DNA of 63,378 bases, counting the filler, from Reclinomonas americana ATCC 50394 (taxonomy: Eukaryota), in NCBI GenBank assembly GCA_048213135.1. It is 12 parts of 12 records of this genome, joined end to end, with 100 filler letters (N's around TTAATTAATTAA, not from the genome) between each part and the next. Parts side by side here need not be neighbours in the genome. Positions count along the whole stretch, not along the records: positions 3,630 to 8,387 come from AFZH01021513.1; positions 8,488 to 17,388 come from AFZH01021514.1; 10 more parts are not named here. One strand, written 5' to 3'. Below, in pieces: positions 417 through 17,380 of this stretch. The position numbers and the translations under genes were made by a program. Positions within the stretch are counted from its first letter, which is position 1. Each line of letters begins with the position of its first letter. A model generated the notes under the pieces. That model saw nothing but the letters and a program-made list of their open reading frames with translations, was not told where the DNA came from and ran no database searches.

Positions 417-492
417 GCTGGCTCAAGGAAGTGTTTTTATTTGAAGAAGAAAACACGTGGGACCTGAGGACATTTGCTTTGTTCGCCAAATC

Positions 493-1789
493 ATGACGAG
501 CGTTGCTCCTCGCTGCTTGCGCTCATTCACTAGCCGCGAGTTTGCCAAGTCGAATCCGTATTGCGTGTCTGTCTCGCAGCGTGTTGCGTGGCCACGAGGC
601 CCAGTGCAACAGCTGTTGGCGGTGGAGTCCTTTGAGCGTCAAGTGTGGGTGTTTGAGGCGGATTCGTTGTCGCTGGTGTGCACGGTGCAGGTGACGAATG
701 CGGCGTGGCGGTGTGCGTTCTCGCCGACAGTGGCCACGCGACTGGTGGTGGCAGAGGGCCACGGCTTCGATTCGAGTATTGCATGCGCTTGTTTGATCTT
801 CAGTGTGATGAGGAGAGTGTGACTCCGCGGCTGCTCTGGGCGCTTGACAATTTTGAAGAAGGCGTGCTCGGGTTGGCGTGGTCGCATCGCGGCGACTTGG
901 TGTATGCGTGCTCGAACGACAAGACGCTGCGTGTGGTGAATGCGGAGACGGGGCAGGTGGTGCGCGTGATTGACGGGCAGCCCGAGGGTGCGCACGAGCT
1001 GCACCCGTCGCTCTCAGGGAAGGTGGTGGTGGCCTCCTATCTCGGAGGAGCACACATCGCTTGGGATATGGAGCGCGGCGTTGCGCTGTGGCAGCGTCCG
1101 CCAAACAACCACCGGTCAAGCTCGTTGATCACCAGCGACGACTGCCATGTGGTCTGCACGAGGCACAGCGACGTACCGCAGCTGTGCGACTTGTGGACGG
1201 GTGAGCCGGTGCGCGAGGCGATGCCGGAGTTGGGCGAGGCCACGACGTTGACGTTTTTCAGCTCGCCTGCTGGATTATATGCGGTAGCACGACATCTCTG
1301 CGGTTGCGTCAGCGACACCAGGTTGCACACTGTGATCGATACTGACGCACTGTTGACACGGCCACACAGATATGCGAGTGTTTCGAGTGAGGAATACCGA
1401 GTTCGAGTTGGTGAACACGCTGCGCAATGTCTTGCCCACAGCTCTGTCATCTGTCGATGTTACTTTTCTCGACACTGGAGCGATTGTGGTGCTGCAGAGT
1501 CGAGGACTTTTGCAAGTGTGGGATGCAGGTGCGTACTATGTGGGAGAAAGAAAGAGGGAGAAGGAACTCACCGTTGGAGATGCACGCAGGTCTGCTGCCC
1601 GAGGCAGGTCCTCTGCTGCGAGAGGAGGTGCGAGCAGCCTGTGACGCCGTCGAAGCACTGCAAGAAGTCGAGGCTGCGGTGGAGGGCGACGGCGGCGAGC
1701 CATTGCCCAAACTCGCGCTGCGTTGTTTCCTGGTGGAGGAAGCACGGCTGCAGCTGTTGCGCTGGTCACTGAGTCTCGATTGTCAGTGA
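493..1789 (+). pseudogene. WD40-like beta-propeller protein, copy A, with a 1-bp deletion near 784 (pseudogene or sequencing error); introns 1303-1369 and 1529-1589
   Basis: Colinear with copy B. 'att gca tg cgc ttg' versus copy B 'ata aca ttg cgc ttg' shifts the frame. WD-like segments GVLGLAWSHRGDLVYACSNDKTLRVVNAETG and LLQVWDA. Confidence 0.75.
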
Positions 1790-1958
1790 AGTGCAATTTC
1801 TCGGAACATTGTCTTGGCGAAAGCGTCAAGGCGCCAACGAGGTGTCGTTCTATGCGTTTGTGGCTGCGGTGGTACATGCAAAGAACGAAAGGCGTGAAGG
1901 GCGGGACGCGGAGGGACTTCTTGGCTCACATTTTCGTCAATCAAACGATCAATCAAAC

Positions 1959-3284
1959 ATGACGAGCGCTCCTCCTCGCTGCTTGCGTTCATTCACCAGC
2001 CGCGACTTTGTCAAGTCGCACGCCTACCGCGTCTCTGTCTCGCGTCGTGTCCCGTGGGAACGAGGCGCACGCGGGTCCGTGCAACTGCTGGCGGTACCGT
2101 CGTGTGATCGCACAGTGCGAGTGTTTGAGGCGGATGAATTGTCGCAAGTGTGCACGGTGGAGGTGGGGAATGCGGCATGGCGGTGTGTGTTCTCGCCTAC
2201 AGTGGCCACTCAGCTGGTGGTGGCGGAGGGCAGCATGTATGGAAAGAGTATAACATTGCGCTTGTTCGATCTCCAGTGTGACGCGAAGAGTGTGACTCCG
2301 CAGCTATTGTGGGTGAGTGACAGTTTCGGAGATGGCGTGCTTGGTCTGGCGTGGTCGCATCGCGGTGACTTGGTGTATGCGTGCTCGCACGACAAGACAC
2401 TGCGTGTGGTGAATGCGGAGACGGGCCAGACAGTGCGCGTGTTTGCCGATCAAGTCGAGTGTGCACACGAGTTGCGACTGTCGCCCTCTGGCAACGTACT
2501 GATGGCTACCTACCGCAAAGGGACGCGCATCGCGTGGGACTTGGTACGCAGGATTCCGCTGTGGAAGCATCCGCCTCCCGAACTCGCGTCGGTTCACCAT
2601 CGACCGAGTTCACTGATCACCAGCGATGGCCAGCACGTCGTCTGCACGATGCTCGACAACGTGCCTCGGTTGTGCAGTCTGCGGACAGGCAAGCCAGTGC
2701 GCGAGGCGATGCCCGAGTTGGGAGAGGTCACGACGTTTTTCACCTCGCCTGGAATCTCGTACGTGGTGGCTCAAGTACGTTGCGGTTGCGTTACTGACGA
2801 CAGTGCACACACACGCAGTCTCTTCACATGCTATTGTGCTGACACTCCTTTGATGCCGCACAGATTTGCTGGTGTTCCGAGTGAGAAACACCGAGTTCGA
2901 GTTGGTAAACACATTGCGCGACGTCTTGCTCCCGGAACAGACGTATGTCGATGTAGCCATTCTCGACACGGGAGCTATTGTGGTGCTTCATGGTGGCAAG
3001 CATGGTTCTCTGCAAGTGTGGGATGCAGGTGCGTGTCGTTGCAGAAAACAAGAGAGAGGGAAGGCAACTCAGTCGGGGATGCATACTGCGTAGGACTACT
3101 TGGTCACTTGTTGCGAGATGAAGTGCGAGCAGCCTGTGATGCCGTCGAAGCACTGGGAGAAGTGGAGGCTGCGATGGAGGGCAACGACGGCGAGCCATTG
3201 CCGAAACTCGTGCTGCGTTGTTTCCTAGTGGAGGAAGCACGGTTGCAGCTGTGGCGCTGGTCACAGAGTCTCGATTGTCAGTGA
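1959..3284 (+). CDS. WD40-like beta-propeller protein, copy B, join(1959..2784,2864..3028,3094..3284)
   Basis: WD-like repeats (SCDRTVRVFEA, SHDKTLRVVNA, SLQVWDA). Two GT-AG introns at the same positions as in copy A. Helical C-terminal tail. Confidence 0.75.
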   Translation: MTSAPPRCLRSFTSRDFVKSHAYRVSVSRRVPWERGARGSVQLLAVPSCDRTVRVFEADELSQVCTVEVGNAAWRCVFSPTVATQLVVAEGSMYGKSITLRLFDLQCDAKSVTPQLLWVSDSFGDGVLGLAWSHRGDLVYACSHDKTLRVVNAETGQTVRVFADQVECAHELRLSPSGNVLMATYRKGTRIAWDLVRRIPLWKHPPPELASVHHRPSSLITSDGQHVVCTMLDNVPRLCSLRTGKPVREAMPELGEVTTFFTSPGISYVVAQVRCGCVTDDSAHTRSLFTCYCADTPLMPHRFAGVPSEKHRVRVGKHIARRLAPGTDVCRCSHSRHGSYCGASWWQAWFSASVGCRCVSLQKTREREGNSVGDAYCVGLLGHLLRDEVRAACDAVEALGEVEAAMEGNDGEPLPKLVLRCFLVEEARLQLWRWSQSLDCQ

Positions 3285-3380
3285 AGTGCAATTTCTCGGA
3301 ATATTGTGCGAGAGACCACCTGCTGCTGACCGGTCGATTGGCGATGCTTGATGGATAATCGTGAGCTTGGGTGCCTTCCT

Positions 3381-3529: not shown

Positions 3530-3629
3530 NNNNNNNNNNNNNNNNNNNNNNNNNNNNNNNNNNNNNNNNNNNNTTAATTAATTAANNNNNNNNNNNNNNN
3601 NNNNNNNNNNNNNNNNNNNNNNNNNNNNN
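3530..3629. other. Artificial contig spacer, first of 11 (others start at 8388, 17389, 19289, 22702, 24091, 27742, 55833, 57309, 59482, 61975; each 100 nt)
   Basis: Identical N44-TTAATTAATTAA-N44 blocks with stops in all six frames. Confidence 0.99.
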
Positions 3630-3926: not shown

Positions 3927-4806
3927 TACATTCGGCGTCAAAGGTATTCCGAAATTTTACCGTTGCACTTTTTTTCCTGCACGTGGATGCGTCAACGCGA
4001 TTTTTTTGCGCGAAAAACGAAGTCCGGGACTGCCCGAACAACCCTGTCAACTCCGTTTCTCGCGGAAATTTTCGCTTCTGCAAGCCTGATTCACTATCGT
4101 GCGACATGTCACGCACACTTCGAAACATTTTTCCCCGAAGAGTGCTACCACGGTTCGCAATAAGTGGCGCACACAGAAGTGTTCAGCAACAACCGCCACA
4201 CACGGGGTGCGCACCAGCGCTGTCTCCAGATGAGTCCAGTGATCTGCCGCTGATGATCATAGAATTTGGGTGACAGTGAGAGATGACCGTTGGAGAAGAC
4301 CGCACCCTTCCTCTGCGCCACCGACGACCGGTTCGGCGCCACTGCACCAGAGCTTGTTCCTGTGGTCTCCCGCACTACGAGGATGTGTGGTGCACGATGA
4401 GATGGAGTGAGCAGCCTGCAGTGTGAGCAAAGAAGCGTGCTGCTCCTGGCCGCACCTCTGCCAAGCGTACGGCTGTTCTGGTGGTGCACCAAATCGCCGC
4501 CAATGACTGCCACTTATCAGACATGTCCCCAACCCAATCAAGAACCTGTGGATATGAGTGAGCGAGCGTGTGGGCGAGCGTGAGTCGGGTGGGAGTCGCA
4601 AGGCGATTTTCGATCAGTCACCAAAAATTCCATTTTCTCTCCGTGCAACACCCGCGAAATGTACACCGCCTTGGTTCGTTTCACCGGTCTTACATAATGA
4701 CGCAGAAGCCTACCGTAAAGTTTGTGAAGACGGCTTGGAAAGAACTCATCTGGTTCTGCTGTGGCGATTTTTTTTTATGTTCGGAATACTTTTAAATTCG
4801 AATGTA
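3927..4806. mobile_element. Non-autonomous DNA transposon (MITE), Tc1/mariner-like, with TA target-site duplication
   Basis: Left end TACATTCGgcgTcAAAgGTATTCCGAA (3927-3953) matches the reverse complement of 4780-4806 at 22/27 nt. TA at both ends. The element is absent from the paralogous promoter at 12327-12400. No transposase ORF. Confidence 0.7.
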
Positions 4807-5020
4807 GTCCCATGGCCACCTGTCTGACGGATGCACACCAACGATCGGAAAATTCGAAGCACGGCTGTCGACTTGTTGAGAGTGCTGCTGCAGGCTAGTG
4901 GACACGATTGCCTGTCACAACTGAGCACGACGGCAAAACGGGAGCGGGGAGCGAGAAAGCATTTTCACATTTGGCGCCAAATTCTACGGTTTCCTTATTA
5001 CTCTCATCACGCCGCTTCTC

Positions 5021-8000
5021 ATGAATGCCAACGAGCGCGCGCTGCTTTTCTCGTGCTCCTCAAGCAATCGTGTTGCCGACCTGCGCGTGCATGTCAGCGT
5101 CGCCATCGTCGTCTTCTTCTCATTCATTCTCGCAGCAAGTTGCGTCACGGTACGGTGCATTTGTCGTTGCCACTCTTCTTCAAACACAAACACGCCTCCT
5201 TCTGTCTTGATCCGCTCGCAGGCGCCCAGACAGTGACCACCGCTGTGGCCAACAATGTCACTGGCTCGTCCGCCACTCTCAACGCGTGGGTCAATCCCAA
5301 CAATGTCGCTGGTGGCACTACCAACTCGTTTGAGTGGTCTCCATACGCCGCTGCCGTTGGTGTCTCCTCTGCCACTGTCTCCGCCTTTGTGGGCACGGCG
5401 GGCGTGTCGGGAACGACGGACGGTGTTGGAGCAAGTGCGCTATTCTTCCAGCCACTGGTACCCTTCATGGATGACATTGATTGCTTTCTCTCACACACAT
5501 TCTGGACTGACGCGCTTGTGCTCTCTCGACAGGGACTGGCCTTCGACGCCATGGGGAACTTGTTTGTCGCCCACCATGGGTTTGTGTGCACCCACAAATG
5601 CATTGTCTCGCTGTCCACTCGTCTGCTTTCTTTCTCACTCTCACTCACACGCGACCATGGCAGCAACTGTCGCATTCGACGCATCACGCCCGCTGCCACT
5701 GTGACAACGTTTGCGGGAGGCACCTGCGGCCTGGCGAATGGCACAGGAGTGGCAGCTCAGTTCAGAAAGTATGTTCTCTCTCACACTCTCGCACATTCTT
5801 TCTCCCGTCACGCACGCCCTTGCATACATTCACAGAGTTACCGACCTGGCCTTCGACCGAACCACGGGAACCATGTATGTTGCCGATGTGAGTGCGCGGC
5901 ATGTTTGTGATCACGTGTGATGCATTCTGCTGACTCAAGAGACTCTGTGTGCATGCGCAGCAATTTAACCACGCCATTCGCGCTGTCACGTCAGCGGCAG
6001 TGGTCACCACGTTGGCGGGCAATGGAGCGACGGGAAGTGCCAATGGCACGGGTGCAGCGGCCTCTTTCTATAATCCCCACGGAGTGGCAGTGGATGCCAC
6101 GAACCAAGTGATGTATGTGGGTGATTGGTACAACAACACCATTCGGCGAGTGACATATGCCGGTGCGGTGACGACCTTTTGTGGCTCTACGGGCATGAGT
6201 GGCATCGCCGATGGTGCGTGTGCGGGAGCGGCGCGATTCGGTGGTCCCAATGGTGTGCTGCTCGTCGGCACCACGCTGTATGTTGGTGAGTGCTGTGTGG
6301 GAGAAAATTTAAAGGGAGATGCACGGCTCTCCTTTCTCATCTGTGTCTTCTCTTTGTGTGCGTGTGCAGCCGATCGTGGGAGCCACTCCATCAGGGTCAT
6401 TGACACTGTGGCGATGACAGTGACGACGGTGGCGGGTTCGACGAGCGGCGCTTCTGGATCCACGGATGGCACCGGTGAGTTCATTCTTATCGACAGTACT
6501 GTTTGATTCCCTACGTTCGTGCTGACTGACAGCAACCCTTGGACCAGGATCCGCTGCCCGTTTCAATTTTCCTGTGGGACTGGCATACGACGGTGGAAAC
6601 AACGTGATCTATATCGCTGATGTTTAGTATCTCCACTTCCCATGCAGAGCCGTCTTCTTTCTCATGAGCCCGACCGCACAGTTATCCAACTACACCGTGC
6701 GGCAACTTCGATTGTCAGACTCGTCAGTGAGCACCATCGCTGGCGCGGTGGGCATGAGTGGCTCCGCCGTCGGGAGCGCACTGACCGCGGCTCGCTTTAA
6801 CTTGGCTCATTTTGTCGCCTTCGATGCATCAACGGCATCGATTCTGGTTTCCGATTACGGCACACACGTTATCCGTCGCCTCTCGCTTTCCTCCCAGTCG
6901 TTGTCAGCCACACCCGCCACCGCCACTGGCTCTCTGGCTTCGTCGATCACCGCCTCGCTGACAGGGTTAGCGAGCAATTGGACCTACTACAACCGCGCCG
7001 TCGTCGTCACCTCCACGCCCAGCACCATTAACGGCGCCACCGTATCGTTCACCACCACCACCAATGTGGCTCCAACCGACATTAGTTGCTCGTCGACGAC
7101 ATATGTGTCGCCGTCGGTGGCGAATCAAGTCGTGTGTGCACTGCAAACGACAGACGCGAATGCGGGCCAGTCGTTCACGTACTCGATTGTCGGCGGCGTC
7201 AACAGCGGAGTGTTTTCGATCAGCGGACAGTCATTGGTGATTGTGGCGGCGGGCCAGGCGGGCAGCCCGCTGGCGGTGACGATTCGGTCGACCGACAATG
7301 GATCGCCGCCGCTGTTCTTTGACAAGGCGTTCAGCATCACCACGGGTGAGACGAATGGGGAACTGCGTGGTCAAGTGTGTAGTGTATCTGCCACTCCCTT
7401 TCGGGGGCCTCTTGCTGATCTTCTCGTCCCCAGTCTTCTTCTTGTTCTTGTTCTTGTTCTTCTTCTTTCTCTTCTTCTTCTTCCTCTTGTTCTTCATCGT
7501 CTCCTTCTCCTACTTGTTCTCCTTCCTCTTTCTCTCCGTCTTGGTCTTCGTCTTCTTCTTTCGTCCTCGTCCTCCTCTCGGTTTCCTCCTACCGCTGTTG
7601 GTCATTCACAGTGATCTTCTTACTTGTTGGTATTCCACAGTCACGCAGTCATTGGCAACACTGGCGGCCAGCAGCTTGTCAACGTCGTCGGCGACGCTGA
7701 ATGCTGTGGTGGGCAACTCCGTGGCGGCCTCGACAATGAGCAACTCATTCGAGTGGGCGCCATCGACGGCTGCATTCGGTGTCACACCAACAGTGTCGAC
7801 TTGGTTGGGTACAGCGGGCATGCATGGCTCGACGAATGGTACTGGCACAGCTGCTCGTTTCACTTTTACGTCGGTTCGTGCACACGTTGTTGCAGTACCG
7901 TGTTTCACGATGTAAATCTCAACCGTGCAGAGCATCGATTTTGATGCGACTGGCACCGCGTTTGTGTGTGATGCTGGTAATCATACGATCCGGCGAGTGA

Positions 8001-8487
8001 CTAGCGCAGGAGTGACGTCTACTTTCCTGGGAACTGCCGGAGCAGCAAGCCTGGTCGACGGGGTTGGTACTGCGGCGCGGTTTTACTATCCCGTTGACTT
8101 GTCGATTGACCTTTCCACCGGCTACCTGTACATCACAGATGTTGCGTTGGTTGCACAACGGATGAAAGAGTGTGACTTGAAGAGTATTGTGTCGCTCACT
8201 CCTGTACACTTTCCAGGCAAGTAACAGTGCAATACGTGTGAGCACGCCTTCTGGCTCTGTGTCAACACTGGCTGGCAACGGATCGTCTGGCACTGCGAAT
8301 GGAACCGGATCGAATGCGAGGTTTAATGGTCCACACGGAATCGTCGTAGACTCGGCGAACAAGGTGATGTACGTTAGTGAGAATTTCNNNNNNNNNNNNN
8401 NNNNNNNNNNNNNNNNNNNNNNNNNNNNNNNTTAATTAATTAANNNNNNNNNNNNNNNNNNNNNNNNNNNNNNNNNNNNNNNNNNNN

Positions 8488-8543
<56 letters not shown>

Positions 8544-11500
8544 GCTGCACTGCTTGTACCAGTGCATCTCAGAACCTGTCTTACCGCCACTCAGGTTACA
8601 TATGGCGGTGAGGTCACTACCTACTGCGGTACTATTGGGTCGTCGGGAACAGCCGACGGCGCATGTGCATCAGTAGCAACATTTGCTAATCCGAATGGCT
8701 TGGAATTGGATTCAATCGCCAATCGGCTGTACGTCGGTGCGTGTATTCGTACGTGCGTGCGATTACTATCGGTTCTCTGCGAATCACTGTGGTCAAGGAC
8801 GGGTGCTCATATCTTGGGAGATGATTGCAGCTGCTCGAGGTGCACATTCCGTTCGTGTGATCGACATGCTGGCAATGACAGTGTCGACTCTGGCCGGCTC
8901 GCTCACTGGAGCATCAGGATCAACGGATGCCACGGGCACTGCCGCTCGATTCAACGAACCTGTTGGCATCTCGCTAGATCGAGGGCGAGGCGTCCTGTAT
9001 GTCTCTGAAGTTGCGTATTCTTGTTCCACTGGAATTGCTGCTCTCTGCGTTCTGCTCATCACTCGTGACACACTTAGGCAACCAGCCACACGATTCGCCA
9101 AATCGTTATTAGCACGGGTGCTGTGACGACCATCGCCGGTGCTGCTGGGTCTTACGGATCGGCGAACGGGAGCCCGCTCACTGTTGCTCGACTTAATGTC
9201 CCGGTTCGCTTTTTTTGTTTATGTTCACAAGAAGCGTGTTCAAAAGAAGCGCTGCTTAGCTCAATTGCATTGCATTGAATGCAGCACTACATGGCATTCG
9301 ATGCTGCGACGTCTTCTCTGTACATCGCGGGTACGAGTTTACCTGCAGTAAGAGGTTTGACAATTGTGTTGAGTTCTCATGCTATCCACCATCAGAGTGG
9401 GACAACTCCACCATCCGTCGACTCACCATTGGCTCCACCACCGTCTCGGCCACTCCGGCCTCTACTGGAGTCGCTTCCAGCACCACCGTGACCGCCTCTT
9501 TGACGTCCCTGGCCGCCAACTGGACGTACTACTTTCGTGCCATCTCGACCTCCACCGTGCCCAGCACCCTCACCGGCTCCACGATGTCCTTCACCACCTC
9601 CAACTCGGCGCCGACCAATGTGACGTGCACCGGAACGACCACCTATGTCGCGCCATCAACTGCTAGCGTGCCGCTGTGTACGATGAGCACCAGCGACGAC
9701 AACGTGGGGCAATCGTTTACGTACGCGGTCAGTGGAGGAGCAAATGGCGCTGCATTCTCAGTAAGCGCTGGCGCCCAGTTGCAGATCGCGTCGGCGGGCC
9801 AGTCTGCCAGTCCGTTGGTTGTCACTGTCCGCTTGTTCGACAATGGCACACCGCCGATGTTTTTCGACAAGTCATTCAGTGTGACGTCGGGTGAGCTGAT
9901 CAGCATGGAATTCGTTGTTTCTTGGTGTGAAATGCTGACCTTGTTTCGGCGCAGTGAACAATGCACCGACGGCGGTTACGCTGAGTGCGAGCTCGTACAT
10001 TCCGCCCAGCACGGTGGGTCAAGCGATTGGCACGATGAGCACGAGCGACGTGGACTCCCAGCAGTCGTTCACGTATTCGGTGGTGGGTGGCGCCAGCAGT
10101 GCATTGGTGACAATCGTGTCTGGCAATCAGCTGCAGTTTGCGAGTGCCAATGTGCAGGCGTCGTTGGTGGTGATTGTGCGCACAACCGACAATGGCAATC
10201 CAGCCATGTCGTTCGATCAGACGCTCAACATTGCTGGTTGCGTGCTTCGACATTGTACAATGTTTTGATGCAAGATTGAGCGCTTATTCTCCTTTGCGCA
10301 TGTGCATGCAGTACCCACTGTGACGTCGTTGTCAGCCACCTTTGTGTCGGCACTGGCCGGCCAGTTGATTACGTTGACGGGAACTGACTTGCTGAACAAC
10401 TCGGTCGACTCGTCGGCGTATGCGCTTGCCACTCCTCTCTGTGCTGCGGCGACGCCTCCAACGGCCGTGGCCAGCACCGCCGTCAGCAGTGTGTTCGGGA
10501 GTGCGACCAGCATCACGCTGACGATTGGTGCGGCGGGTGCAACTGGCGGCACGTACGAGTTGTGCACGCGATGGTCGCCCACCAAGACGTACCTGGCGGT
10601 GTCTTCGTTCGCCATCGGTGAGGAACGAGTAGACAAGAGAGAATTCTTTTTGTGCGTGCTTGTCAGCTTATTGGAGTGTGTGCAGGGAATGTGGCTCCGA
10701 GTGACATTCTGCTGTCGGGCGCACAGACATACTCTAGCGCGACAGTGCCATTCACGGTGGGCACACTGAGCATGGTGGATCTCAACACGGGACAGACGCC
10801 AACGTTCAGCATCGCGGGCGGAATACATGCGGCTCTGTTCAGCATTGTGGGTGGCAATCAGCTGATAATCTCGGTTGCCCCTCCGCTGAGTCGGCGATTG
10901 CAAGTGTTTGTGCAAGTGAGCGACGGGACGCTGACGTTCACGAAGCAGTTCGTGATTGTGTACGGTGCGCGATCGCGCATAGGAGACGGGATTAGAAGGG
11001 GAATAGGGAGAAGGGATGGAAAGGAAGACAAGCATGGTGCTAACGGCAGAATGTGTTGATATCGAGGGTGAAGGTTGCAGAGCGCGTACACGCGAGTGCA
11101 AAGAGCGGCAGCGATTCGAGTGAGTGGCACAGAGTTCAGTGTCAAGGGGAGCAGAGAGGGACAGAGAGTCGCTGTGTGCGTTCGTGTGCGTGTGTGTGTG
11201 TGAGAGAAAGAGACAGATAGGGTGAGCAAGGAGGGGGAGTGAAAAGTGCAGGGAATTCGACGACGCGAATAGCGAAGGCGGAAGCGTGGGTTACAGAGAA
11301 GAGTCGGGAGGGTATCGACGGTACATTCTTCGCTGAGTATGCGGTAAAGAGGAAGAAGACGCAGCCCTTTGATCTTGTCCCTCAGTGCGAGATTGTTTCG
11401 GTGGCTGGCGCCGGATGCACTCTCTTCTTAGTCGAGGCACTACTCGCGCTAGGTGTCATACACAGTTGTACATTGATTGATTGTGCACTGACAATGTCTG

Positions 11501-12282
11501 TGTGCAGCATCGATCGCGACTGCAGGCTGTGCGGCGGTGCAGCATGGAGTGGTGGCTTGTTGCGTTTGCTGTGAGCTTAGCATTATCATCGTCTACCATC
11601 TCACTCTTCGGCATACCGAGCAGCCGCGTTGGAAGTGTGCCAGTTCGAGGCAGTAGATCGACCTGGCGGCACGATCTTCGGTGTGTTTCTATCGGTTCTC
11701 AGCGAAGTCGGATGTTGCGAGTTGTGCGACCAGTGTCCGCTGTGTCGATCATGGACGTTTTTGGATGCTGCTGCGGCGTCGAATACTCTTGGAGTTGGTG
11801 TGTGCACCCTCAAGGCACGTGATCGTTGATGGTAAGAAGAGGCGCTTGACGAATGACGAGCTCATCTTCTCGGTGCATGCAGAGCACGGTACCGGCGGCG
11901 GCAGTCAATGCAGAGACCAGCAACGTGTGTGGCACGCATTTCTGCTTGGTGTCGGGACGCAAGACGAGTGCGGCTGCGTATGACAGCAGCGGATTCCAGA
12001 CGAGCACGGGTGAGTTTTTCGCAGAGATTAGAGAGAAAGAGATGAGGGAGGATTGTGGCTTATTGGCGTGCAGATCGACCTGGTGGCGATCTCACGTGGG
12101 CCATCAAGACAACAAGCGGAGCACAAGCATGCTCGCTGTGGTGCTCGCAGTTGGCCGCATGCGGCTCGTGGACGTTCACAGCGTCGACGAAACAGTGTGC
12201 GCCGAAGAGTGGCGTGGTGGCGACGTCGACGGGGACTGCGTGTGCGACCAGCGGTGACTGCACATCGGGGTTGAAGATCTGA
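5021..12282 (+). CDS. Large secreted multidomain protein: signal peptide, 2x[FN3-like domain interrupted by NHL propeller, cadherin-like], cadherin-like, IPT/TIG-like, cadherin-like, 2x PAN/apple-like; ~23 introns; spans the 8388-8487 gap
   Basis: Spliced frame gives VAIVVFFSFILAASA|QTVTT (signal peptide), NHL repeats (FYNPHGVAVD..MYVGDWYNNTIRRV), cadherin-like NxAPTDI..TTDANAGQSFTYS..STDNGSPP, and PAN-like DRPGGDL..CSLWC..CGSWTF..C.PK. The exon at ~11508-11558 is less certain. Confidence 0.8.
7420..7590. repeat. CTT-rich low-complexity tract inside intron 7346-7640
   Basis: Degenerate (CTT)n/(CTTGTT)n pyrimidine tract between a GTGAG donor and a CAG acceptor. Confidence 0.8.
8489..8542. repeat. 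Intronic (GT)n microsatellite at contig start
   Basis: Perfect GT run; probably caused the assembly break inside the NHL gene. Confidence 0.95.
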
Positions 12283-12326: not shown

Positions 12327-13228
12327 ACGCCTCAGCACAGTCACCGGGGAACGCCTCGAGCTCCTTCTTAAACTGTGCGCCAATGCTGACGGATGCACAC
12401 CAACAACGATCGGAAAATTCGAATCACGCCTGTCGACTGGTTGCCGGTGCTGCTGCAGGCTAGTGGACACGATTGCCTGTCACAACTGAGCACGACGGCA
12501 AAACACTCGGAGAGAAAAGTCGAAATCGTTTTACTGAGACACGGCATTTTCACATTTGGCGCCAAATTCTACGGTTTCCTTTTCTCATCACGCCGCTTCT
12601 CATGAATGCCAACGAGCGCGCGCTGCTTTTCTCGTGCTCCTCACGCAATCGTGTTGCCGACCTGCGCGTGCATGTCAGCGTCGCCATCGTCGTCTTCTTC
12701 TCATTCATTCTCGCAGCAAGTTGCGTCACGGTGCATTTGTCGTTGCCACTCTTCTTCAAACACAAACACGCCTCCTTCTGTCTTGATCCGCTCGCAGGCG
12801 CCCAGACAGTGATCACCGCTGTGGCCAACAATGTCACTGGCTCGTCCGCCACTCTCAACGCGTGGGTCAATCCCAACAATGTCGCTGGTGGCACTACCAA
12901 CTCGTTTGAGTGGTCTCCATACGCCGCTGCCGTTGGTGTCTCCTCTGCCACTGTCTCCGCCTTTGTGGGCACGGCGGGCGTGTCGGGAACGACGGACGGT
13001 GTTGGAGCAAGTGCGCTATTCTTCCAGCCACTGGTACCCTTCATGGATGACATTGATTGCTTTCTCTCACACACATTCTGGACTGACGCGCTTGTGCTCT
13101 CTCGACAGGGACTGGCCTTCGACGCCATGGGGAACTTGTTTGTCGCCCACCATGGGTTTGTGTGCACCCACAAATGCATTGTCTCGCTGTCCACTCGTCT
13201 GCTTTCTTTCTCTCGCTCACACGCGACC
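12327..13228 (+). repeat. Recent segmental duplicate of the promoter and 5' part of the NHL gene (3885-3913 plus ~4825-5657)
   Basis: Near-identical sequence including introns. A 5-nt indel (TACGG) falls inside the predicted first intron. Confidence 0.95.
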
Positions 13229-13563
13229 CACTGGAGCGATTGTCGTGCTCCACAGTGGCGATCGAGGACTTTTGCAAGTGTGGGACGCAGGTACGTCTTG
13301 CTGCGAGACGGTGAGCAACACTGAGAAGGAGAAGACAAGGATACTCACTGTCGGAGGTTCACACAGGTCTGCTGCCCGAGGCTGGTCACTTGTTGCGAGA
13401 GGAGGTACGCGCAGCCTGTGATGCCGTCGATGCACTGGGAGAAGTGGAAGCAGCAATGGAAGACGACGACGGCGAGCCACTGCCGAAACTCGTTATGCGT
13501 TGTTTCCTGGAGGAAGCGCAGCTGCAGCTGTTGCGCTGGTCACAGAGTCTCGAATATCAGTGA
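12602..13563 (+). CDS. Candidate chimeric gene (NHL-gene exons 1-3 fused to the 3' end of a third WD40 paralog), join(12602..12719,12798..13033,13109..13155,13256..13290,13367..13563), 210 aa; may be a pseudogene
   Basis: Junction at ~13228. Using the CACAG acceptor at 13255 keeps the WD40-tail frame open to TGA 13561-13563. Confidence 0.5.
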
Positions 13564-13780
13564 AGAAGCACCTAATAGACACCACAGCGATGCCTCGCCG
13601 AATCCGCCCCGGCATTCATGAATACATCGTCTCGCGGCTTCACTCAGCAGTCGGTGTGGCGGCACGGACAACTTGCTAATCTGTCGCTCGTCTTCCAGTG
13701 TCTCAGATTTTCGCTCTCTCTATAAACAGGTACGTGGGTGGTGGTGCAGAGTGGATGAGGTGGGGATGAGTTTGAGGCAA

Positions 13781-15437
13781 CTACTGCATCTGCCTGGCGG
13801 CATTGAGGCGCGCCATGAGGTCACCCGTGGACTCGATTCGGTTTCGCATCGGTCCGCCAAAATCAGTGGCCGCAGTGGCGTCGGTCTTGAGCTGCACATC
13901 ACGACCCATGTGAGACTGCCTTTCCACCATCATTACCAACATACATACTCAAATCACAACAACGTACCGCCATCAGTGCCGGTGCCGATGGAATCCGGTT
14001 CAGCAGGCCCTCTGTGCCAATGTTCTCCTTCTCTTCGTACCGCCGTTGCAGATTGGCCAGCCGCTCCGACACACCGTCTGTGGTTAGAGTGGGATTCGCG
14101 AGCGGTGCCAGGGATGGCGCAGGTGCAGCCGAGGGCCCGGCGGCCGCGCCACCAATGGCGAGACCACCTCGCATTTCAATTGCCTGTGAAAAACAAACAA
14201 ACTCTCGTAAACCACACACGCACAGAAACAGTGTGCCGAAAACTCTCCTCACAAAGCAACTGACCTTTTCACGCGCCTCGAGTTGTCGCTCACGCTCGTC
14301 GAGCGCCCGCTGACGAGCATCCAGAGCCACCTCCTTCTCCCGCAGCTCCTCTTCGCGCTTCTTCATCGCGCTGATCTGCATGGCCATCTTGCGCTCGCGC
14401 AAGCGCGCCGAGATGGGTGGGAAATCCAGCAGCTGATCGACGTTCATACGCCGCGCCTGGTCGACTTGCAGCATGTTGGTGATCACGTCACGCAGCTCGC
14501 GCGAGTACGAGCTGGGAATGGGCTTGAACCTGCCCTCGCGAATCTTCATGGCCAGTGCCACTTGCGTTTGCGCCTCAAATGGCGGACTGCGCGTGAAAGA
14601 TTAAAAAGGAGTGAGTAAGACGATGGAGAACTACACATTAGGGAAGAGCAAACAGTTAAAAAACGCAACGCCAGCGCGCAGAGCTCGTACATCAGGCAGC
14701 CGAGGCTCCAGATGTCGGACTTTTGGTTGTACGGCACCTCGTTGACTTGCTCTGGTGACATGTAAAACGGCGTGCCGACGTTGGTGTAGGCAAACATGGA
14801 GCTCTTGGAGAGGACGCGAGCGAGGCCGAAATCGCCCAGCTTCACATTGCTCTGTGCGTCGAGGAAGATGTTGCCGGGCTTGAGGTCGCGATGCAACACA
14901 GCGCCCTCGTCGCGGTTGTGGCACTCCTTCAGCGCGCACAAACATTGCACAAAGATGCGCCACACAGTCTCCTCATCCAGCAATGTGCTGCAGCACACAC
15001 ACACACGGGAGGATGAGTCAACCAACGCACTCATTCCGACAGCATGCCAGACAACTAACCCTTCTCGTCGCGCCTTCTTGATGAGGGCTCCCAGATCGCC
15101 GCCTGAGCAGTACTCCATAACAATGTAGATCTTCTTGCGATCGCGGTCAATGATGCGGTCGTAGTAGCGCACAATGTGTGGGTGGCGCAGCTCGCGGAGA
15201 ATGTTGACCTCCGACACCAGCAGCTGCTTCTCTTTGTCCGACATGTTGCCATAGTACAGCTCCTTCCACACCAGTTGCTGCGTGCGTGTAGGACGGAAGA
15301 AGACAGTGAGCGACGAGAGTCGTCGTGGAGTCATATCTCGAGTTCCGACAGACCTTTCCGTCGGCCTTGCGGCGGATGCGACTCACTCTGCCAAAGGAGC
15401 CGGAGCCAATGACACCCAGCACTTCATATTGATCCAT
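13781..15437 (-). CDS. NEK2: NIMA-related kinase NEK2-like, complement(join(13781..13891,13968..14183,14265..14586,14670..14987,15060..15277,15354..15437))
   Basis: GSGSFG, LVWKEL.YG.M...EKQLLVSEVNILRELRHPHIVRYYDRIIDR, HRDLKPGN, DFGLAR, GTPFYMSPE. Coiled coil and KEN motif follow. Five GT-AG introns of 72-83 nt; the last exon is inferred. Confidence 0.92.
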
Positions 15438-16476: not shown

Positions 16477-16586
16477 ATGGCGGCCCCAAATAAGACGCTG
16501 ACGTACAAGCTGGTGCTGTTGGGCGAGAGTGCTGTCGGAAAGTCGTCACTTGTGTTGCGTCCCCTTGAGCGCTCTCAAGCACACCA

Positions 16587-16617
<31 letters not shown>

Positions 16618-17380
16618 TCACTCACGTTCACTTGGCGCACAGATTGCGATTTGTGCGAGGGCAGTTCTTTGAGTACCAAGAGTCAACAATTGGCGGTGCG
16701 CTGATTCTGCTGCCGCTGTTCTGGATGTCGTGTGTGTTTGCTGATGGTGTCTGTTTCTCGTGTGTGTGCGCAGCGGCGTTCTTGACACAGACTGTGCCAC
16801 TGAATGACACGATTGTCAAGTTTGAGATTTGGGATACGGCAGGGCAGGAGCGGTACCACTCTCTTGCACCGATGTACTATCGGGGAGCGGCAGCAGCGAT
16901 TGTGGTGTATGACATTACGAACCCGGTGAGCATGTTGTGTGGTGGTGTGTGTGCGTGGCTGGTTGTGGTACCGTCAGACGCGGGCTTCTCGAGTGGGTTG
17001 CACGAGCCGCAGCCGTCACCTGTTGCCGTGTTCCTCAAGTACACAGTGATTGTTATTCCCAAGCTTCTTTTGCACTCTCCTCAGTCTCCCCAGTCTCTCT
17101 CTCTCTCTCCCTTCCCTCCCCGCCTCATCCACTCACCTTTCCTCGCTTTCCCCCATCACACAGCACTCATTCGAGAAGGCCAAGGATTGGGTGAAGGAAC
17201 TGCAGCGCAAGAGCAGTGCCAACATTGTTATCGCACTGGCCGGCAACAAGGTGGACATGAAGGACAAGAGGAGAGTGGCCACCGAGGACGCGGAGCAGTA
17301 TGCCACCGACAATGGCATTCTGTTCCTGGAGACGTCCGCCAAGAACTCAATCAACGTGAATGAGATTTTCGTGGCCATTG
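16477..17380 (+). CDS. RAB5: Rab5 small GTPase, 3'-truncated, join(16477..16553,16643..16695,16774..16925,17164..17380)
   Basis: [50 protein letters not shown]; Rab5-diagnostic effector region. Confidence 0.95.

Follow-up and report, generated by a model that had tools for sequence, protein, structure and literature searches.

The gene at positions 5021-12282 of a 63,378-nucleotide stretch of the Reclinomonas americana ATCC 50394 assembly (GCA_048213135.1; 12 parts joined end to end, hereafter the window) encodes a multidomain adhesin-like protein with two nested units, in each of which a fibronectin type III (FN3) domain is, by alignment and modelling, split at the loop between strands C and C' and carries there a complete six-bladed NHL propeller. 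The nested unit also occurs in bacteria, and in this genome it is carried by a large family of predicted secreted proteins that vary most on one face of the propeller, which may point to a role in surface binding.

A domain-insertion architecture had been proposed for this gene in a first-pass annotation made from the sequence alone, and it is now supported by alignment to intact FN3 domains, by a two-chain model and by the predicted fold of a bacterial unit. Both FN3 halves align with the uninterrupted bacterial FN3 repeats of P0070 and P0079 (fn3, PF16656), and in this alignment the propeller stands where those repeats have a short C-C' loop. Whether the split halves close into one beta-sandwich was the structural check set beforehand. 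Folded as two chains, the halves paired in the model with a score of 0.62, compared to 0.02 for the best of three controls; runs agreed in at least 99% of contacts, the partner chain had a predicted local distance difference test (pLDDT) value of at least 81, and the surest contacts joined strands B with E and C with F. The FN3 sheet (strands A-B-C-C'-E-F-G) is held by this same B-E and C-F pairing. In calibration on microbial pairs, 51 of 78 solved and 2 of 108 mismatched ones reached the mark for pairing; on eukaryotic pairs, 39 of 65 solved and 2 of 126 mismatched ones did. A pass may reflect the likeness of the halves to solved FN3 domains. The bacterial unit (L096), folded with 33 sequences, gave a model (pLDDT 94.8; predicted template modelling score 0.86) in which strands A-B-C are followed by six blades and then by strands C'-E-F-G. 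Its best structural matches were the propellers of SOQ1, NHLRC2, a teneurin-like protein and Lin41 (Z 40-45 against NHL structures); the fold searches were filled by such propeller matches and hardly probed the FN3 part. The bacterial profile matched the eukaryotic N-terminal and C-terminal halves at 97.4% and 96.4%, respectively. The structural support comes from the two-chain halves and the bacterial unit, and for the whole spliced protein FN3 closure and orientation are predicted. A full-text literature search, whose coverage leaves out most subscription journals, found no publication on an NHL propeller inside FN3.

The modules had been described as bacterial in style, and it is the whole insertion, not just its modules, that occurs in bacteria. 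When a profile of the N-terminal junction was searched against 1.84 billion representatives, a single protein among the best 150 of 6,572 matches (P0101) matched across the junction; it bears three nested units with intact FN3 domains between them. A search with the P0101 junction gave 21 proteins, 17 of which carry 31 nested units, and scanning 185,579 species genomes with a strict motif yielded 48 loci. These held 44 distinct motif matches (34 nested, 3 intact, and 7 followed by blades that were cut at the locus end or fell outside the length rule). The nested matches lie in 26 genomes, counted from record titles and all metagenome-assembled, which belong to Verrucomicrobiota (18), Planctomycetota (6) and Chloroflexia (1), with 1 unassigned. 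Judging by these sequence matches, eukaryotes did not invent the nested unit.

Like the R. americana protein, the uncharacterised Planctomycetota and Verrucomicrobiota surface proteins (P0101, P0236, P0255 and P0240-P0254; loci L092-L136) have an NHL propeller, of six blades or at times shorter, inserted in the C-C' loop of this FN3 type, and two or three units per protein are common; unlike it, they are intronless, were found by the motif scan at one to three loci in each genome, and gave no PAN match in the three sets scanned or annotated. Bacterial proteins combine nested and intact FN3 domains, as do some genes of this genome. Five Planctomycetota loci (L114, L117, L125, L128 and L136) have shorter propellers, with spans of 278-305 amino acids, and a C' strand that is by eye most like the eukaryotic one. 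In P0237 (residues 1802-2109), a Laminin_G_3 domain is inserted in the same FN3 type just after strand C', and this FN3 type hosts more than one kind of guest. Among viral contigs, 10 loci had blades and no FN3 halves. A serine after the strand-C aromatic was considered as a marker of nesting and rejected, as it was also found in uninterrupted domains, namely in 3 of the 44 bacterial matches and in many FN3 domains of this genome. The nested unit flags uncharacterised Verrucomicrobiota and Planctomycetota proteins whose split FN3 escapes profile searches.

Exons placed by coordinates and translated gave a single gene of 24 exons, with 780 stop-free amino acids from the 12 exons before a contig break (part A, 5021-8387) and 810 amino acids plus the stop codon from the 12 exons after it (part B, 8595-12282); with the six codons that the break hides according to the paralogue chains, the product has ~1,596 amino acids. 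The protein called giant in the first-pass annotation is thus large (~1,600 amino acids) rather than giant, while the single-gene, multidomain adhesin-like layout is borne out. The order is leader, nested unit 1, cadherin-like domain 1, nested unit 2, cadherin-like domains 2 and 3, an IPT-like domain, cadherin-like domain 4 and two PAN domains, where a nested unit is an FN3 half, six NHL blades and the other FN3 half. The unit had been counted twice with about six NHL repeats each, and exactly six blades align in each of the two; the cadherin-like, IPT-like and two PAN domains downstream were likewise found, but of the cadherin-like domains the first separates the two nested units and the fourth comes after the IPT-like domain. 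The features, all on the + strand except the contig break, which has none, are as follows.

5021..5138, +: exon 1, hydrophobic leader (predicted signal peptide), with a phase-1 intron after it (gene model)
5222..5355, +: N-terminal half of FN3 unit 1, strands A, B and C (alignment, two-chain model, bacterial profile)
5368..6891, +: NHL propeller 1, whose six blades span exons 2-9, with chain entry at a d strand and exit after a c strand (gene model, Pfam, blade alignment; strand order from the bacterial model)
6892..7062, +: C-terminal half of FN3 unit 1, strands C', E, F and G (alignment, two-chain model, bacterial profile)
7063..7345, +: cadherin-like domain 1 (matches to bacterial cadherin-domain proteins at 32-43% identity; Pfam Cadherin, PF00028, E 0.067)
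7641..7774, +: N-terminal half of FN3 unit 2 (sequence comparison)
7790..9433, +: NHL propeller 2, with six blades; no other part varies as much within the family (gene model, paralogue comparison)
8388-8487, no strand: N spacer at a contig break, behind which ~six codons and a donor site are hidden
9434..9604, +: C-terminal half of FN3 unit 2 (alignment)
9605..9890, +: cadherin-like domain 2 (likeness to domain 1; no Pfam match)
9955..10236, +: cadherin-like domain 3, single exon (gene model; no Pfam or PDB-sequence match)
10312..10617, +: IPT/TIG-like domain, single exon (PF01833, E 0.001, slightly below the cut-off)
10686..10964, +: cadherin-like domain 4, single exon (gene model; no Pfam match)
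11508..11558, +: short linker exon with a conserved cysteine, 5' boundary uncertain (gene model, paralogues)
11624..11933, +: PAN/apple domain 1 (PAN_4, E 9.5e-10; cysteines conserved)
11988..12282, +: PAN/apple domain 2 up to the stop codon, with no membrane anchor (PAN_4, E 2.3e-5; last four residues identical in 43 of 51 cases)
12390-13240, +: almost identical duplicate of the gene's first three exons and of the region upstream of them, breaking off thereafter (sequence comparison)

Pfam was run on 16 single-exon pieces, on which NHL scored above its cut-off in two exons, TIG reached 19.5 bits against a cut-off of 20.9, and PAN_4 reached 38.8 bits in domain 1 and 24.8 bits in domain 2 (a partial exon) against a cut-off of 27. 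The fn3 model had no match on these pieces, the split halves included, and the Cadherin model gave nothing for domains 2-4. It was a phmmer search that brought out the bacterial cadherin-domain proteins. Interdomain calcium binding in cadherins involves D-x-N and D-x-G-x-P motifs and an acidic linker; by eye, the first two elements are present here and the acidic linker motif is incomplete. Searched against PDB sequences, the first PAN domain met a factor XI apple domain at E 0.82. The PAN cysteines are invariant or nearly so in 50-53 copies. The translation is rich in Ala, Thr and Ser, with 17 N-glycosylation sequons. The leader is its sole strongly hydrophobic stretch, in agreement with the signal peptide and lack of an obvious transmembrane anchor noted earlier, and a leader-like exon was found in 37 of 38 paralogue cases by a permissive search.

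Of the 22 introns that are whole, 21 are GT-AG and one is GC-AG (11815-11882), and five have the unusual donor GTTGCG (e.g., at 5139, 8141, 9010, 10237 and 11559). The predicted splice sites were found again in nearly all paralogues, with the exception of the 51-nucleotide exon 11508-11558, whose acceptor was at the predicted place in 1 of 49 paralogues. All 11 gaps in the window (e.g., 3530-3629 and 8388-8487) consist of 44 N, a 12-base spacer and 44 N, that is, artificial contig joins and not measured gaps. As the window is a chain of separate contigs, bacterial from ~22.8 kb, the join at 8388-8487 within the gene had to be checked. The exons flanking it lie on one contig in 50 of 62 paralogue chains, and the hidden part is there usually six codons followed by a GT donor. 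The partial copy at 12390-13240, a recent partial duplication and a sign of ongoing local rearrangement, places a near-identical version of the gene's own 5' end directly after its stop on the second contig, which suggests from sequence comparison that the two contigs are true neighbours. No sequencing runs were listed for 5021-8387.

The gene had been read as a singleton, and a family was missed: it is one of about 80 (81-84) mostly intact paralogues by exon matches. Searches with three exons gave close matches for at least 81 of 150 listed (at least 78%), at least 83 of 150 listed (at least 75%), and 84 of 109 full-length (at least 78%), the first two being lower bounds as 150 candidates were scored in each. 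From 60 stretches, 62 paralogue chains were built, 33 of them with at least 21 of the 23 non-leader exons, and the 62 together hold 2 stops. Pairwise identity has a median of 82% and a range of 72-96% (1,591 pairs), so the copies are not assembly duplicates. Many are in tandem, and leader, cysteines and C-terminus are kept across them. No intron-free paralogue was found among the copies, where long open frames were runs of N. An apparent three-blade paralogue (L036, L037) was set aside because its deletion coincides with a 20-N assembly gap and is probably an artefact; in L036, a segment of propeller 2 (4406-5183) matches in reverse orientation, as an inversion or a misassembly. A further 25 weaker PAN-exon matches in the genome comprise a second group at 51-62% identity and several fragments, which belong to other PAN-bearing families.

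We then compared the paralogues along the protein. The ratio of nonsynonymous to synonymous substitution rates (dN/dS, or omega) is 0.13-0.20 in FN3, cadherin-like, IPT and PAN domains, and stalk and PAN are, by this measure, under purifying selection. Within each blade, variability is highest at the residues near the F-x-x-P motif and in the D-x-x-N loop, with about six variable positions per blade. The top face of an NHL propeller is described as formed by its b-c and d-a loops (PMC4015489), and the peaks, which correspond to the d-a and b-c loops, therefore lie on the top face. Of the 1,532 positions compared, the 67 on the top face account for 15 among the 20 most variable and for 29 among the 50 most variable; mean entropy on the top face versus the rest is 1.5 versus 0.5 bits in propeller 1 and 2.3 versus 0.7 bits in propeller 2, and top-face omega is 0.68 and 0.99, compared to 0.21 in the remainder of each propeller. 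The variable top face across ~80 paralogues makes a binding role more likely.

How the propeller might be displayed can be proposed from its topology. With the chain entering at a d strand and leaving after a c strand, the FN3 domain would join the bottom face of the propeller through the c-d link. The top face, made up of the b-c and d-a loops, would then point away from the stalk of FN3 and cadherin-like domains. The proteins would be secreted, two-headed, multidomain binders, forming a repertoire whose members differ in the foreign surfaces that they bind, be these bacterial prey, substrate or other cells. A partner would retain each of them on the cell surface or within secreted material, possibly via the conserved PAN pair. 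That the family consists of diversified secreted surface-binding proteins with different specificities is the reading that we favour by a small measure, and adhesion or prey capture is suggested by analogy. IFT46 is present in the host genome, where no match for light harvesting was found, and both results fit a heterotrophic flagellate. The best matches to the host's HSP90 were at 70-78% and did not place it in a lineage. Recognition of prey is described as a named step of protist feeding, with its genes little studied in free-living species (PMC7852580). More speculatively, the ~80 two-headed receptors might be a germline-encoded library under diversifying selection, taken from a bacterial display module and used for prey recognition, antibody-like on an NHL scaffold; we regard this fuller version as doubtful. 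The family supplies ~80 natural versions of a single fold that differ at about six mapped positions in each blade, so binding specificity is directly testable.

Several results weigh against a binding repertoire. The top-face omega as a class is not above 1, and our own site model gave modest support, with twice the log-likelihood difference at 12.4 and 14.9 under variable dS and at 0.0 and 29.2 under constant dS; 4 of 8 and 1 of 5 flagged sites fall in the top-face set. This model is unvalidated, its global fit lies at the grid edge, and it ignores recombination. The top-face set was chosen after the entropy plot had been seen, so its enrichment is partly circular. Positive selection is therefore weakly supported, and relaxed constraint on exposed loops explains much of the top-face signal. 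Finally, the protein has a leader and no C-terminal anchor, and with no anchor its retention is a guess.

A top-face omega near 1 rather than clearly above is also what might be seen if the proteins formed a variable outer coat or decoy, with the propeller face drifting or diversifying to escape viruses, parasites or predators, and the many intact tandem copies as well as the Ala/Thr/Ser-rich, sequon-bearing composition would suit such a layer. The variation, however, sits at a few fixed positions per blade, on the face that is reported to bind ligand in Brat and that bears the loop linked to homophilic binding in teneurin, and this display layout is tied to ligand binding in the accounts of RTX adhesins; we consider a coat rather unlikely. 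Self or kin recognition, in which the targets of the propellers would be one another or a partner receptor on conspecific cells, would be in line with the closest solved folds, which include teneurins and a bacterial teneurin-like protein. The IPT domain is, in addition, reminiscent of Dictyostelium Tgr proteins. In teneurin, the NHL domain is reported to set homophilic specificity (PMC5851990). The present proteins are without a membrane anchor, though, and their diversity is spread over ~80 loci in one genome rather than seen as allelic polymorphism, which leaves kin recognition improbable. A secreted enzyme or antimicrobial, with a catalytic propeller that the stalk positions on prey, would have relatives of the same fold in PAL lyase and the SMP-30 lactonases (Z 24-31); yet the face expected to bear the active site is the least conserved part, and by eye the family consensus holds no invariant set of His, Glu or Asp beyond the structural blade motif, so that we give this little credence. 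The binding repertoire remains our preferred reading.

Where the module came from was addressed with FN3 trees, per-domain phylogenies having been set beforehand as a check on the horizontal acquisition that the first-pass annotation had proposed. The patchy bacterial match fits such an acquisition, and it is probable in our view that the nested module came from a surface protein of Planctomycetota/Verrucomicrobiota type and then gained introns and eukaryote-type PAN domains. In a quick tree of 99 columns, with junction columns kept, bacterial and eukaryotic nested FN3 shared one side of a branch whose support was weak (62). When junction columns were left out and the genome's other FN3 domains added (with 16 long or redundant rows named for removal), the groups mixed and the nested units did not form one group, although a single clade for all of them was not rejected (p-AU 0.38, approximately unbiased test). 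The trees thus do not speak clearly for a donor, a direction, a single origin or placement in a bacterial clade. An insertion that arose independently in this eukaryote and in bacteria in a permissive FN3 loop, or that moved from eukaryote to bacteria, would agree with the mixed groups, with this genome's extended arrays of uninterrupted FN3 domains of that type and with the other domain near the same place in P0237. Set against it are the same loop and the same d-strand entry in both, the unrejected single clade, the shared side of the branch when junction columns are kept, and the mixing of nested and intact FN3 in bacterial proteins as in some genes here; we therefore take this alternative to be the less probable one, if a serious competitor, and prefer the bacterial source. 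No eukaryotic homologue with the nested unit was recognized among 79 matches, the best 150 of 6,572 or the 21 proteins, lists that are crowded by NHL proteins and make this a weak negative.

Other genes of the genome were read in 16 stretches. Nine of them (L151-L157, L164 and L165, on G000 contigs C674, C226, C64, C707, C4346, C218, C244, C1826 and C84) have single exons with extended arrays of uninterrupted FN3 domains of the propeller-hosting type, with open frames of more than 1,000 amino acids, and 6 of the 9 also have nested units; L158-L163 and L166 hold strings of at least three nested FN3-NHL units in tandem. Contamination was considered and rejected: the window past ~22.8 kb is bacterial, but the adhesin gene has spliceosomal introns that are kept across paralogues. 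The bacterial contigs (22802-63378), with guanine-plus-cytosine content rising to ~0.6-0.69, carry open reading frames labelled by eye as relaxase-like, ParA-like and primase-like, CoA-transferases, ABC transporters and gamma-glutamyltransferases. Closer to the gene, tandem WD40-repeat genes ~1.5 kb apart and 75-90% alike (489-3307) are accompanied by a further 3' fragment (13384-13589), to which the duplicated adhesin start at 12390-13240 is joined. Exons of a NEK-like kinase (13899-15382, - strand) and of a Rab5-like GTPase (16569-17363, + strand) are, by eye, ordinary eukaryotic neighbours.

Among the closest known systems are the RTX adhesins, in which split Ig-like domains are described as projecting ligand-binding domains (PMC12077191, PMC10865825). 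AhLap, FrhA and MpIBP have, as reported there, a beta-sandwich stalk domain interrupted by a budding guest with its termini together and its far face free, and a guest budding from a split beta-sandwich was likewise seen in the two-chain model and the L096 fold. Unlike in RTX adhesins, the host here is FN3, the guest is an NHL propeller and the protein is eukaryotic, with an N-terminal leader in place of RTX repeats and type I secretion; no RTX repeats, type I secretion signal or retention module were found in the translation. Teneurins and bacterial teneurin-like proteins (PDB 9ifo) share an extracellular six-bladed propeller of TEN_NHL type beside an FN domain, and a bacterial origin by transfer is reported for them. 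The teneurin NHL is described as packing with its bottom face, exposing its top face and setting homophilic specificity (PMC5851990, PMC6425310, PMC13018210). Nesting in teneurins was considered, as structural match ranges spanned both halves, yet these papers have the NHL following the FN-plug in tandem, with the plug itself as the FN insert; the adhesin also lacks the YD shell, EGF domains and membrane helix of teneurins. Toxoplasma MIC4 is described as a soluble apple-domain adhesin without its own anchor that is held by a transmembrane escorter, and is not known to have NHL, FN3 or cadherin-like parts (PMC2196004, PMC6829480); MIC4 and its escorter may serve as a precedent for retention of an anchorless protein. 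Every module of the R. americana protein is known, as is the display principle from RTX adhesins, and the propeller in FN3 extends split-domain display to FN3 hosts.

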